A stretch of DNA of 64,000 nucleotides. Origin: a virus. The notes beneath the pieces were generated by a model that did no database searches, was not told the DNA's origin, and worked only from the letters and a program-made list of their open reading frames with translations. The stretch is from the IMG/VR virus record IMGVR_UViG_3300005573_000006, positions 27,308-91,307 of that record. One strand, written 5' to 3'. Numbering within the stretch: the first letter of the stretch is position 1; every line of letters begins with the position of its first letter. This document shows positions 24,495 to 27,753 of this stretch, piece after piece. A program made the translations under genes and the position numbers.

Positions 24495-24896
24495 ATGAAA
24501 AAGAAAAATAACAAATTTTTACCAAAAGGTAAAAAAACCCTGGCGGTCGATCTTGATGGGACAATAGCAAAAATAAATCCACTTGCAGGTATAACAATAG
24601 GTAGCCCAATCAAAGAGGCTATTCCAATATTGAAAAAATTTAAAAGGGCCGGTTGGCAAATAATTCTCTATACCGTTAGGCCAGATGAATGGGTATTGCG
24701 AAAATGGTGTGACAAAAACTTCCCCAAAATATTTGATGCTATAAATTGTAATCCTGAAGATGTAAGACAATGGGGGATAGTCAGTGCTAAACCAAAAGCA
24801 ACCATCTATTTAGACGATTGTGCATGGCCCAATAACGGTTTTTTTGATTGGAAAAAATTTAAAGAAGATGCAATAAAAAACAAATGGATAAAATAA
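24495..24896 (+). CDS. HAD-superfamily phosphatase
   Basis: AVDLDGT motif I, LYTVR motif II, KP..TIYLDD motif IV. Confidence 0.85.
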   Translation: MKKKNNKFLPKGKKTLAVDLDGTIAKINPLAGITIGSPIKEAIPILKKFKRAGWQIILYTVRPDEWVLRKWCDKNFPKIFDAINCNPEDVRQWGIVSAKPKATIYLDDCAWPNNGFFDWKKFKEDAIKNKWIK

Positions 24897-25330
24897 AAAC
24901 GAATACAATATATTCAGGACATGTAATTGATGTCCTGCGAACTTTTCCTGATGAAAGTATTGATATGGTAATTACTTCTCCGCCATATTGGGGATTACGC
25001 GTATATAAGGCCGGAGGCGTTATCTGGGATGGAGATAAAGAATGTAATCATGAATGGAGTAACAATGTTCTAGCAGGAGGAAGGGCCGGACGTCCGTGGG
25101 GAGATACGGGACTACATAAGATACAACAACAATCATGGGACCAAAAACAACTTTCTTTTCAGCATAAAGAAACCATGTCGGCTTTTTGTACTAAATGCAA
25201 TGCATGGATTGGAGAACTTGGACTTGAACCGAGTTTTGAAGATCAAATATTTGAAATAGAAATAATGGAACCAAAAAAAGATCTGACCAAAGAAGATTTA
25301 GACATGCTTAAAAAAGAGCTTGGTTTTTGA
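24884..25330 (+). CDS. N4/N6 DNA methyltransferase (beta class), N-terminal fragment
   Basis: PDESIDMVITSPPYWGLR catalytic motif IV, then GELGLEP and a stop after an extra ~30-aa tail. Confidence 0.85.
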   Translation: MDKIKTNTIYSGHVIDVLRTFPDESIDMVITSPPYWGLRVYKAGGVIWDGDKECNHEWSNNVLAGGRAGRPWGDTGLHKIQQQSWDQKQLSFQHKETMSAFCTKCNAWIGELGLEPSFEDQIFEIEIMEPKKDLTKEDLDMLKKELGF

Positions 25331-25355
25331 TAATCTTTGTGATCTGATAGATAGC

Positions 25356-26177
25356 ATGAGTATAAAAAACATAGTAGAAAACAAAAGAAGATGGAGTAAC
25401 CCAGAATATAAAAAAAGAGTTGGGAATAAGATTTCTAATACCTTGCGCGGAAGAAAAATGTCGGATGATACTAAACAAAAAATATCTAAAAAATTAAAGG
25501 GAAGAAAAACATGGAAAACAAGGATAAGAATCCTAAAAGGAAAGGACCATCCAAACTGGAAAGGAGGAACAACACCACAACGACAACAAGAATATGCCAC
25601 AGAATCTTATAAACTATTTGTTAATACCGTATTACAAAGGGATGATTATACTTGTCAAGAATGCGGGGCAAAAAACGGAAATGGTTATAATGTCAGACTT
25701 AATGTTCATCATATAAAATCATATGCCGAAAATCCAACATTAAGATTCGATATTAATAATGGAATAACGTTATGTTTCATTTGTCATAATAAAACTAAAT
25801 CAAAAACGCCAAAACCCAGTAGGATTGATAAAATATTGATTAAAAAAATATGCCAGAAATGCGGTGAGGAGTTTCAAAAAAGAAATCCCCAAAAATACTG
25901 TGATAAGTGTAAAGAAACAATATGTGAATATTGTGGCGAAACATTTATATCAAGAAATAGTAAAAGATATCAAAAGTTTTGTTCCCGAAAATGCTATGGT
26001 CAATGGTGGTCAAAAAACAAAGTAAAAGAAAATAACCCCCACTGGAAAGGGTATATTGAAAAAGATTGTATAAATTGTCTAAAAAAAATTAAAAGAAGGG
26101 ATAACGAAATTTTAACAAATTATAATAAAAGAAAGTTTTGTTGTCTAAAATGTGCATATGATTATAGAAAAAAGTAA
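25356..26177 (+). mobile_element. HNH homing endonuclease (NUMOD3 + HNH + Zn ribbons) inserted in the MTase gene
   Basis: MSDDTKQKISKKLKG (NUMOD3), HPNWKGG, RDDYTCQECG...VHHIK...NGITLCFICH, FCSRKC repeats. Confidence 0.9.
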
Positions 26178-27234
26178 AATACCTCAACATTTATTAAAAT
26201 ACTTTCAGTTAAAAGAAAAGAAAAAAATAGTTCGTCGTGGTTATATTTCACATCTTTGTGACATTTTTGATGAAATAAAAAGAGTGTTAACCAAAGATGG
26301 AACTTGTTGGGTAAACATAGGAGACACTTATCAGTCCGCACCAGTTAGCGGTAAACAAGGTGGTTTTTCTGGTAAAGCAGCTAAAAATAATCCAGAATAT
26401 GCCGAAGCAATATTAGTAAAAAAACCAAAAAGCAGACTTAAAAATAAAACACTTTTACAAATACCGGCCCGGTTTGCTATAGAAATGTGTAATCGTGGAT
26501 GGATACTAAGAAACGATTTGATCTGGAAAAAACCAAATATTCTTCCGAGTTCTGTCAAAGATAGATTCACGGTTGATTATGAACATATTTTCTTCTTCGT
26601 AAAAAATGAAAAGTATTATTTTGAACAACAATTTGAACCGTATGCTACATCTACAAAAAATGATAAAAGATTTGAAATAGCCAAAGAAGGAAAATATACC
26701 GGCGGGACAAATGTAAAAAAAGGATATGAAGAAAGCAAAGCACAAAATCCCATTGAGGTTAGAAACAATGTATTTAATGCCGGACTTGGACAAGGAAGAA
26801 ATATGCGAAGCGTATGGACTATAACAACTAAAGGGTTTCGGGGAGCCCATTTTGCCGTATATCCAGAGAAACTTATAGAAACACCAATAAAAGCAGGTTG
26901 TCCAGAACTTAGATGTTTAACATGCGGAAAACCACGAAAAAAGATAATAACAAACGAACATGTTGGTGGAACACCATATTATCCGCAACATAAATGGCAA
27001 AAAGAAAATAATGTTGGCCCACGTCCAAGAGATTATATTGCTAAAAAAGAATTTTGCGGATACACAGACTGCGGACATAATAACTGGCGTAAAGGAATAG
27101 TATTAGACCCGTTTTTTGGATCGGGAACCACTGGAGTTGTGGCAGAAAAACTAAATAGGGATTGGATAGGTATAGAACTAAATAAAGAATTTATTAATAT
27201 AGCAGAAAAAAGAATAAATGAAGAAAGAAGATAA
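26158..27234 (+). CDS. N4/N6 DNA methyltransferase, C-terminal fragment
   Basis: YISHLCDIFDEIKRVL..DGTCWVNIGD, IWKKPN, RSVWTI, HFAVYP, VLDPFFGSGTT motif I, IGIELN. Confidence 0.9.
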   Translation: MIIEKSKIPQHLLKYFQLKEKKKIVRRGYISHLCDIFDEIKRVLTKDGTCWVNIGDTYQSAPVSGKQGGFSGKAAKNNPEYAEAILVKKPKSRLKNKTLLQIPARFAIEMCNRGWILRNDLIWKKPNILPSSVKDRFTVDYEHIFFFVKNEKYYFEQQFEPYATSTKNDKRFEIAKEGKYTGGTNVKKGYEESKAQNPIEVRNNVFNAGLGQGRNMRSVWTITTKGFRGAHFAVYPEKLIETPIKAGCPELRCLTCGKPRKKIITNEHVGGTPYYPQHKWQKENNVGPRPRDYIAKKEFCGYTDCGHNNWRKGIVLDPFFGSGTTGVVAEKLNRDWIGIELNKEFINIAEKRINEERR

Positions 27235-27318
27235 GGCATTTTGGTTATCAATATGGTTGCTTATAGGACTTTATGGTTCTGTTCTTTTAACCATATTTAT
27301 AATGAAAATATTACAAAA

Positions 27319-27753
27319 ATGACAAAATTTAAAATATACCCAGAAAAAGGAAACAAACAATATTATTCAGTAATAATATTTGACAAAAAAGCTGATATGA
27401 TAAAATATTCATGTGCCATAACAAAAAGACCGTTACATCTATTTGAGGCAGTAGCACATTCATATTACGCTTATTATAAAAGAAACAAAAAATATATATT
27501 GTCAAAGCAAATAGGAAGTATACTGTTTTATAAAAACGGATTTGGAGTAGGAACCGTTGCCCATGAAATAGCTCACGCAACCAATTACTATTTTAATAGA
27601 AAAAAGATAAAATTTAGAATTGGTAATGTTATAAAACCAACAAAACAATGGTTTAAATATGATGAAGCATACGCCCATATTTTAGGATATATGATAAATC
27701 AGTTTTGGAATAAATATAATGGTAAAGTAAAAACTAAATCAGAAAAATATTAA
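27319..27753 (+). CDS. Putative Zn metallopeptidase-like protein
   Basis: VAHEIAHA HExxH with a downstream DEAYA Glu ligand. Confidence 0.55.
   Translation: MTKFKIYPEKGNKQYYSVIIFDKKADMIKYSCAITKRPLHLFEAVAHSYYAYYKRNKKYILSKQIGSILFYKNGFGVGTVAHEIAHATNYYFNRKKIKFRIGNVIKPTKQWFKYDEAYAHILGYMINQFWNKYNGKVKTKSEKY

Follow-up and report, generated by a model that had tools for sequence, protein, structure and literature searches.

Homing endonucleases are thought to persist in genes mainly inside introns or inteins. A route free of splicing has been documented experimentally in the nrdA gene of phage Aeh1 and comparatively in a T4-type topoisomerase gene, and a DNA methylase gene from a hot-spring virus is probably a third host gene of this kind. 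The gene lies in a stretch of 64,000 nucleotides (nt), here called the window, which covers positions 27,308 to 91,307 of the IMG/VR record IMGVR_UViG_3300005573_000006; the whole record is a virus sequence of 91,307 bp with direct terminal repeats, obtained from hot-spring metagenomes. A free-standing HNH endonuclease gene separates the methylase into an N-half and a C-half, and each half carries a short additional peptide at the cut, a "tail" at the end of the N-half and a "head" at the start of the C-half. Related pairs of these tags are found in other methylase genes. In both its anatomy and its kind, the locus is most plausibly a gene that has been split without splicing and that carries conserved, cassette-borne tags.

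In phage Aeh1, as described by Crona et al. 2010 (PMC3045599), the nrdA-a/mobE/nrdA-b arrangement likewise consists of an enzyme gene split by a free-standing gene of the HNH family, with neither RNA nor protein splicing. There, too, both halves have tails that are absent from unsplit homologues, derive from the element and bear opposite charges. These tails, created by the mobE insertion, are essential for the split NrdA, and their deletion causes an activity loss of about 2000-fold. According to a prediction in the same paper, similarity searches would hardly reveal such tails in other genes. The host enzyme in Aeh1 is a ribonucleotide reductase, whereas here it is a methylase, in which the function of the tags is putative. 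The polarity also differs: Aeh1 has a basic tail and an acidic head, and in the window these charges are exchanged. Unlike the Aeh1 pair as described in that account, the pair in the window belongs to a recognisable family that occurs at many loci and at several sites.

For the MobA-split T4-type topoisomerase gene 39/60, Manning and Atkins (bioRxiv 10.1101/2022.08.31.505936) report conserved C-terminal and N-terminal extensions (CTE/NTE) and an endonuclease that can be replaced by other families. As in the methylase, insertions were repeated and independent, the endonuclease was pseudogenised or lost while the split and the tails were kept, and secondary fusion is found. By their account MobA elements occupy only a single insertion site in one gene and bring a 50-nt ribosomal bypass, whereas the methylase tag pairs occupy three, perhaps four, positions, and the C-half in the window has no coding gap, which speaks against ribosomal bypass there. 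The initial annotation of the window had put forward the toleration of a homing endonuclease by means of such extensions; the principle is not new, having already been published for Aeh1 NrdA (PMC3045599) and for the MobA topoisomerase (bioRxiv 10.1101/2022.08.31.505936).

The "fractured genes" of Dassa et al. 2009 (PMC2677866) have the same order of parts on one strand, are likewise known from phage and metagenome DNA, and include one endonuclease-free locus. As described there, their flanks are full split-intein halves that ligate the exteins, whereas the tags in the window are far shorter and are devoid of splice-site residues. No paper on a tag-bearing split PF01555 methylase was found in the literature searched, which included few subscription journals. 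What is new is a searchable family of tag sequences that recurs at more than one position within a single enzyme family and whose life cycle can be followed, and this is the first case found. The docking domains of polyketide synthases and nonribosomal peptide synthetases are also short C- and N-terminal peptides, located on consecutive polypeptides, that pair and thereby order the subunits. They are not known to be borne by mobile elements or to reassemble a single fold, and the likeness is one of principle only.

Structure of the split methylase locus

According to the ORF (open reading frame) calls, three ORFs, each in a different frame, occupy positions 24884-27234 of the window (Table 1). 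The initial annotation had placed the catalytic SPPY and the DPFFGSGTT motif in separate ORFs with the endonuclease gene between them, and the ORFs are as described. Motif IV (SPPY) in the N-half, an S-adenosylmethionine (AdoMet) motif (FxGxG) near the C-terminus and the Pfam match of the C-half place the enzyme in PF01555 (N6_N4_Mtase); the N-half has no Pfam match. In PHROG 67 (DNA methyltransferase), residues 3-58 of the N-half correspond to profile positions 120-167, and residues 29-356 of the C-half to positions 170-346. The halves abut in this profile and are therefore consecutive parts of one enzyme, with both tags lying outside the family. Relatives of the methylase with solved structures are M.MboIIA, CcrM and M.PvuII.

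Table 1. Coordinates of the split methylase locus within the window.
Feature	Position	Strand	Description
N-half ORF	24884..25330	+	148 aa; SPPY at 24977-24988; ends GLEPSFED + QIFEIEIMEPKKDLTKEDLDMLKKELGF + TGA
N-half, methyltransferase proper	24884..25243	+	120 codons, ending ...GELGLEPSFED; PHROG 67, E 6.3e-13 (residues 3-58)
Tail	25244..25330	+	28-codon C-terminal extension QIFEIEIMEPKKDLTKEDLDMLKKELGF plus TGA; absent from unsplit homologues
HNH homing-endonuclease gene, free-standing	25320..26177	+	start at ATG 25356 (273 aa) or in-frame TTG 25320
C-half ORF	26158..27234	+	starts with ATG; 358 aa; begins MIIEKSKIPQHLLKYFQLKEKKKIVRRG + YISHL; DPFFGSGTT at 27106-27132
Head	26158..26241	+	new ATG and 28-codon N-terminal extension MIIEKSKIPQHLLKYFQLKEKKKIVRRG
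C-half, methyltransferase proper	26242..27234	+	stop included; from YISHLCDIFDEIKRVL; PF01555, E 5.6e-38 (Pfam)
Whole insert	25244..26241	+	998 nt, from tail and stop through the HNH gene to start and head; extent determined from unsplit alleles

Below, labels beginning with L denote a locus or contig and those beginning with P a related protein, and junction 1 is the GLEPxFxD / YI.HL position. The unsplit proteins P0003, P0004 and P0005 run continuously through this junction (GLEPTFDLYIKHL; wider stretch GLEPTFDLYIKHLCDIFDEVKRVL), and in an alignment the N-half is collinear with them up to GLEPxFxx. The motif that the initial annotation had given as following GLEP in intact relatives matches these three homologues. 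Since they read through the junction, the insert can be delimited as the segment between GLEPSFED and YISHL. Unsplit P0002 is 79-80% identical to the C-half and unsplit P0003 69%; P0002 is N-terminally incomplete, and the junction is seen in the other three proteins. The GC content of the insert is 28.9%, versus 39.7% and 34.2% for the methylase bodies. This is no outlier, as 16% of the 998-nt stretches in the window are equally low or lower.

The middle ORF matches the HNH family PF01844 (E 4.4e-8; 33.6 bits, cut-off 21.4). It also has ten PHROG matches, seven of which are annotated as HNH endonuclease (best E 4e-16). Initially described as a NUMOD3-HNH gene, it retains the HNH part of that description; NUMOD3 scores 19.5 bits, just below the cut-off of 20.4. 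The gene is single-copy in the 91-kb genome, and no second tail/head pair was found in that genome, in which the pair of the window stands alone.

The tail stop is separated from the ATG of the HNH gene by 25 nt (25331-25355), and the region of the head ATG overlaps the 3' end of the HNH gene by 20 nt. Codons preceding the HNH ATG (window 25320-25355; L054:253-309) specify residues of which about 6 in 10 are alike in the window and locus L054 (...NLCD[LI][LI]...). Because these upstream residues are kept, the endonuclease ORF may start at a non-ATG codon that overlaps the tail stop, chaining the three cistrons by overlap; the TTG at 25320, if used, would overlap the end of the tail. No Shine-Dalgarno-like sequence was found upstream of the starts in the window.

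Recurrence of the tags at junction 1

Among the 120 best relatives of the C-half, five (the window included) have the same head, M[IL][IL]EK.KIP.[HN]LLKYF...[KR]G, right before YISHL, and three more have a related, shorter head right before ELGLEP. A metagenome scan with the head gave 16 loci, and their translation showed that the tail is conserved too. The same tail/head pair is present at junction 1 in 14 other loci. A profile of junction-1 tails matches the C-terminus of the other junction-1 N-halves (L054, L055, L064, L067 and marine contigs) with domain E-values of 1e-10 to 5e-16, and a profile of the heads matches the N-terminus of the C-halves with domain E-values of 5e-10 to 9e-16.

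The content of the gap between the tags varies. L054 (tail TFDDKIIEVELMELREDLTEKELKEIKKYIDVE-stop) and L064 (the same kind of tail, also present as P0136) have an HNH gene on the same strand, 64% and 54% identical to that of the window, respectively. In all three same-strand loci (window, L054, L064) the overlap between the HNH 3' end and the head start is identical, at 20 nt. In L055, again with this kind of tail, the HNH gene is a homologue (58% over 130 aa) but runs on the opposite strand. In L067, which has the same kind of tail, the gap holds a 112-aa Cys-rich ORF without similarity to the HNH protein; the sole family hint for this ORF (L067:136-471) is a weak match to DUF4428 (E 0.008). 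L068 is truncated by the contig end. In ten marine contigs the gap is empty: the tail ends ...RDDLTTNELKKVLKYLKGK and its TAA abuts the ATG of MIEKGNVPKSVLKYF... in the same frame. TAA is the usual stop in these contigs, where it ends 7-10 of 10-13 long ORFs each, and the TAA at the tag junction is therefore not recoded. The ten contigs represent only two or three sequence types. No other form is as abundant as this endonuclease-free one, of which the piece-2 cluster (P0127) was seen on 42 contigs. Given that the gap may also contain an opposite-strand HNH gene, another ORF or nothing, the tags are not tied to this particular endonuclease.

L069 is a single re-fused ORF, ...GQEPHLKDRVIEGKVRKGYISHL, which keeps only the first tail residues (...LKDRVIE) and the last head residues (GKVRKG). 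The part that begins with KVRKG shares 78% identity with P0125, a head-tagged protein. L069:3854-5073 has a frameshift in a downstream T-run, with two overlapping ORFs, and is either a pseudogene or an assembly error.

Selection and charge

Selection on the tags was assessed in 11 pairwise codon comparisons, each with 14-17 synonymous sites; the pairs are not independent. The ratio of nonsynonymous to synonymous substitution rates (dN/dS) is 0.05-0.48 in ten of them, and in the eleventh synonymous sites are saturated (proportions of synonymous and nonsynonymous differences, pS and pN, of 0.94 and 0.16). For the tail the values are 0.28-0.48 (four comparisons) and for the head 0.05-0.36 (four comparisons, a fifth being saturated at synonymous sites); between the heads of the window and L054, pS is 0.72 and pN 0.12. 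All differences in tag length are in frame. Low dN/dS and in-frame insertions or deletions indicate that the tags are read as protein, and this, along with their recurrence across loci, bears out the initial view that they are real and conserved features at the protein level.

A methylase inactivated by the insertion and now decaying as a pseudogene would be an improbable explanation of the locus. The frameshift in the re-fused relative L069 is in line with such decay. In the window, however, both halves look undecayed, as had been noted initially: the ORFs are intact and keep 84 of the 87 columns that are invariant among 14 unsplit homologues. Moreover, lineages that have diverged from one another still have the split form, with conserved tags and a low dN/dS, which is 0.08 for the marine methylase body.

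The sequence pattern of the tail suggests a strand (alternating IxIxLxE) followed by a helix (xDLTxxE and an amphipathic run), and that of the head a strand (MIIEK), a helix (IP..LLKYF) and a second strand (KKTIxxxG). At junction 1 the putative tail strand has a charge of -4 to -7 in 8 of 8 rows, and the last strand of the head has a charge of +3 to +5 in all eight.

Absence of an intron or intein

In phages, HNH genes are often found within group I introns, and the Rfam model is insensitive to introns with large ORFs. The insert is also located exactly between two codons of a conserved motif. These points favour a group I or other self-splicing intron with an HNH ORF, the tags being intron read-through, yet such an origin is very hard to reconcile with the remaining data and we give it hardly any weight. 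An Rfam search of positions 24600-27500 at E <=10 gave no intron family with its conserved P3-P9 core; the two matches were snoRNA-like and due to chance. The sequence outside the ORF amounts to just 112 nt and 64 nt, three different frames are used, and the first half is terminated by a stop codon. Selection at the protein level, with in-frame insertions and deletions, acts on the flanks, the endonuclease is on the opposite strand in L055, and ten loci would have a 180-nt "intron" of conserved coding sequence with TAA-ATG mid-way.

Alternatively, the tags might be two parts of a (possibly degenerate) split intein that ligates the halves by protein trans-splicing. The gene order is that of the fractured genes (PMC2677866), and a degenerate intein is one possible origin of tails according to Crona et al. 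(PMC3045599). Against this, the head ends in [RK]G (Arg-Gly in the window) and not in His-Asn, the residue after the head is Y at junction 1 and A, S or E at other junctions, and the first residue of the tail varies (Q/K/E/T). Pfam searches with the two halves and with the read-through module gave no Hint or intein family. Together the tags amount to 56 residues, whereas an intein splicing domain has roughly 130 residues or more. Protein trans-splicing thus seems scarcely credible. The Rfam result, the residue and size data and the comparison of loci make both an intron and an intein untenable, and the initial conclusion that a homing endonuclease is tolerated here with neither of them is upheld.

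Related tags at other positions of the methylase

The marine genes are split again about 200 residues downstream, after GRxxR, with a related tag pair. At this second junction the upstream piece ends ...GRHHRTTWLFKPEFMKMKEDLTKKEKETVIKKLLELNLI-stop and, 4 to 34 nt later and in another frame, MGKIIVNKSDIPEEILKYFEEIEISRG precedes AVWSLS.... A search of six-frame ORFs from 148 sources with the tag profiles revealed a further related pair in L022 and L035 (IMG/VR), where the split is at RFALEMTN / AWIKRR. Here the upstream piece ends ...RFALEMTNPNYILRDDLTKEEKEYVLKTLINNGII-stop, and the head MLELPLDKIPKELLKYFKPKRKYG precedes AWIKRRTKIW. The gap contains a 172-aa HNH-like ORF that is dissimilar to that of the window (BLASTP E 0.12) and that has decayed to 71 aa in L035. 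The two contigs are near-identical, and comparison of L035:4270-4554 with L022:2104-2657 reveals a deletion by which the HNH-like ORF has lost roughly its first 100 codons and the tail ends differently. The deletion captures one stage of endonuclease decay.

To guard against circularity, profiles were rebuilt from junction-1 rows only and run against a database of 26,468 sequences. The tails of the second-junction and L022 types were matched with E-values of 8e-4 to 5e-3, their heads with 8e-4 to 5e-2 and the ELGLEP-type heads with 0.04 to 0.09; noise began at E-values of 2 to 4. The second-junction and L022-type tags were the best matches other than those from junction 1, each was at the correct terminus of a methylase piece, and the motifs xDLTxxE and K..IP..LLKYF are kept across junctions. 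We regard the pairs at the second junction and at the L022 junction as real paralogues of the junction-1 pair, and the ELGLEP junction as a probable further position only, because the partner halves were not seen. The portability suggested for the pair in the initial annotation is thereby supported: methylases without a closest-kin relationship share it at junction 1, and two or three other positions have a related form of it.

At the second and L022 junctions a native strand stands beside the cut on both pieces (VW.I...; GWILRN), a doubling that recalls the duplicated homology region of MobA. P0123 (524 aa), a head-tagged C-half, has an in-frame insert of about 200 aa (residues ~215-430) with a weak LAGLIDADG match (E 0.003). 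This insert is at the position of the marine second junction, between two copies of the native strand (CVWDIKPEGF ... ALWDIPTKPF), and no intein-like ends are visible in it.

L022 and L035 also have a bare stop elsewhere in the gene. At L022:1640-1655, and identically in L035, 6 nt (TAG-TTG or TTG-TAG) are found inside the native WGLRDFG, giving ...SPPYWGL, TAG, TTG-RDFG, with matched TTG codons flanking the stop. A micro-split lacking tags, a brief hop of the ribosome or a defect could each explain this site; in L022 the surrounding RNA folds no better than shuffled sequences do (z 0.45).

Mobility and phylogeny

A tree of 126 methylase bodies was calculated from the 330 columns after the head only, using IQ-TREE (LG+G4, short search). 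In this tree the methylase body of the window groups with the unsplit P0002, P0003 and P0009, with a support of 98 in the Shimodaira-Hasegawa-like approximate likelihood ratio test (SH-aLRT); for the grouping with P0002 and P0003 the support is 98-99. P0010 is sister to eight unsplit proteins (SH-aLRT 96), and P0006 pairs with the unsplit P0116 (95). To explain the distribution of 11 tagged among 105 unsplit rows, the state must have changed at least 7 times.

The approximately unbiased (AU) test, applied to a subset of 31 rows, rejected a common clade for all tagged genes (difference in log-likelihood 294.8, p 7e-17). This subset comprised 9 tagged rows, the tagged group being named beforehand, and 22 unsplit rows that were picked after the first tree had been seen, most of them close neighbours and a few of them distant. 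Left out were P0125 because of its long branch, the L067 piece because of its gaps, 83 unsplit rows, and the unclassified and ELGLEP-junction rows. Within the subset the well-supported branches alone require no fewer than 4 changes.

In a comparison of the window with L054, identity is 79% for the head and 64% for the HNH protein, but only 30% (N-half) and 44% (C-half) for the methylase bodies. Since the parts of the cassette are more alike than the bodies and a single clade is rejected, the cassette has been gained or cleanly lost several times among diverged alleles, like introns and inteins.

These data bear on the possibility that split and tags are older, belonging to an endonuclease-independent lineage of two-subunit methylases, and that the HNH gene is a later squatter in the gap. 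The varied gap content (nothing at all, the HNH gene on one strand or the other, a different HNH-like ORF, or an ORF of unrelated kind) speaks for such a history, as does the abundance of the endonuclease-free marine form. It is set back by the phylogeny: with the nearest relatives of the window unsplit and a single tagged clade rejected, the split must be recent in this lineage, where the endonuclease is intact. The overlap of HNH gene and head, an identical 20 nt in all three same-strand loci, gives the impression of a single integrated unit, and in the precedents of MobA and MobE the endonuclease was lost once insertion had taken place (bioRxiv 10.1101/2022.08.31.505936). We therefore consider a later settlement of the HNH gene unlikely, and prefer a cassette in which the endonuclease and the tags were inserted together.

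Two DNA sequencing runs are possible sources of the window DNA, and each has the stretch in one identical contig. Two joints in these runs were disregarded, as their sides of 21-24 letters come from unlike contigs.

A possible mechanism of tolerance

We suggest that the beta-class PF01555 N4/N6 methylase of an uncultured hot-spring phage carries a composite mobile cassette in a conserved loop, made up of the tail with its stop, the free-standing HNH endonuclease gene and a start codon with the head. The methylase halves would be translated separately, with no splicing, and the overlapping or abutting stops and starts would probably couple the translation of the three cistrons. The halves would then associate non-covalently, uniting SPPY with the AdoMet pocket. 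Tail and head would be the tolerance module of the cassette, most likely by helping the halves to dock, with the first strand of the tail adjoining the last strand of the head and the two helices packed beside them. When facing an unsplit allele, tail, endonuclease and head could be copied in together by double-strand-break repair, as is an intron or intein. Later the endonuclease would decay or be lost, and the tags would stay because, we propose, the split enzyme now depends on them. The loci can be lined up as stages of such a cycle, with intact, inverted, decayed and lost endonuclease and a re-fused gene.

Several features are shared with the MobE/NrdA and MobA/Topo2L systems. The gene is split by an endonuclease gene, the pieces have novel extensions, and the tails are conserved among insertions and have been kept after decay (L035) or loss (marine contigs) of the endonuclease and after fusion (L069). 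Whether the tags actually dock the halves is, in our estimate, an evenly balanced question. Purifying selection, the opposite charges at junction 1 and the scar in the re-fused L069 all point indirectly to docking; the scar joins the tail strand and the last strand of the head, which fits a hairpin-like contact. It is more speculative, and on balance rather doubtful, that tail and head make up an autonomous two-piece mini-domain (strand-helix plus strand-helix-strand) that serves as a portable tolerance module.

A number of observations weigh against this picture. In Aeh1, according to Crona et al. (PMC3045599), the tails are not needed for the halves to bind, only for higher assembly and activity, and the "clamp" of the initial annotation may be the wrong image. 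At the second junction there is no charge complementarity, the tail strand having a charge of 0 to +3 and the last head strand -2. What looks like a tail "strand" at the second junction may have arisen by duplication of a native strand of the methylase (compare P0123), and the difference is therefore not a clean compensatory swap; covariation of charge between junctions is suggestive, not clean. In the window, L054 and L064 the first six head codons also form part of the HNH 3' end, which constrains them for reasons other than docking. The ten marine contigs are close to copies of one another and not ten independent cases, the E-values for tags at other junctions are modest when taken singly, and the ELGLEP junction is known from heads alone, without a partner half. 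No cassette-free allele was seen in the two DNA runs. Finally, the endonuclease may have brought the tags, or may have settled later into an existing gap between stop and start.

Some of these observations would be expected if the tags were expression signals or genetic baggage (stop, start, coupling, HNH 3' end) and the halves were assembled by the methylase's own interface, an explanation to which we assign a minor share of the probability. Aeh1 halves still heterodimerise without tails (PMC3045599), the first 20 nt of the head overlap the HNH end in the three same-strand loci, the second junction has no charge complementarity, and in the marine contigs the TAA that abuts the ATG has an AAGGA-like stretch upstream. 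Baggage does not readily account for purifying selection along the whole of both peptides, endonuclease-free loci included, or for the fact that each side has retained about 28 residues although the endonuclease is gone and a stop and a start alone would suffice. A bare site of that sort does exist elsewhere in the gene (TTG-TAG-TTG in L022/L035), and the motifs xDLTxxE and K..IP..LLKYF are conserved across junctions.

It can now be tested whether such tails are generic docking modules or host-specific patches, and whether or not the endonuclease carries them in. If the mini-domain were real, it would provide homing endonucleases with a third general route, beside introns and inteins, for residing inside genes: a tail-stop-(endonuclease)-start-head unit in a surface loop that re-zips the host protein without splicing chemistry. 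If the pair were to work outside methylases, it could furnish a compact natural heterodimerisation tag for split-protein engineering.

Scope of the tag family

The tags do not correspond to a contiguous ordinary loop of unsplit methylases. Comparison of heads, tails and the read-through module with 14 unsplit homologues by hhalign gave probabilities of 0.1-0.15%, in agreement with the initial reading of the tags as additions. By eye the head resembles the native motif-IV stretch (SPPYW.LRDYG), but homology is unsupported by profile comparison; tblastn matches with the ELGLEP-junction heads extended into this motif-IV stretch. No known domain was significant in Pfam for the read-through 60-mer (best E 0.024), a sequence-profile search of the PDB with the tags likewise gave nothing significant (best E 0.11), and the ESM Atlas result for the tags (0.83) was at chance level.

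The initial annotation had proposed a search for the same tags in unrelated host genes; all credible matches are PF01555 methylases. In a profile search of 1.84 billion representatives there were 5 matches at E <=0.001, namely three head-tagged PF01555 proteins, one tail fragment and one spurious HMG-box protein; apart from the latter, no chain with both tag halves was found at this threshold. A word-indexed search of 5.8 billion proteins gave 16 matches at E <=10 among 8000 candidates scored, all of them methylase pieces. A host gene outside PF01555 was not found, which is weak evidence of absence given the low sensitivity of half-profiles of about 30 residues. None of 38 pattern matches in species genomes was confirmed, and tblastn gave no match in cultured phages. 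In IMG/VR, 0 of 52 loci carry the junction-1 head, and 0 of 134 pattern matches obtained with the tail alignment were confirmed against the tail of the window itself.

P0132 (115 aa), one of the 16 matches of the word-indexed search and from a single 992-nt contig, has a marine third-piece head fused to a glycine-dehydrogenase C-terminal domain, and looks like an assembly chimera and not like a second host gene.

Upstream of the methylase in the window, a 133-aa ORF (24495-24896) ends 13 nt inside the N-half (ATG 24884). Because of this overlap the methylase is probably linked translationally to its upstream neighbour as well.

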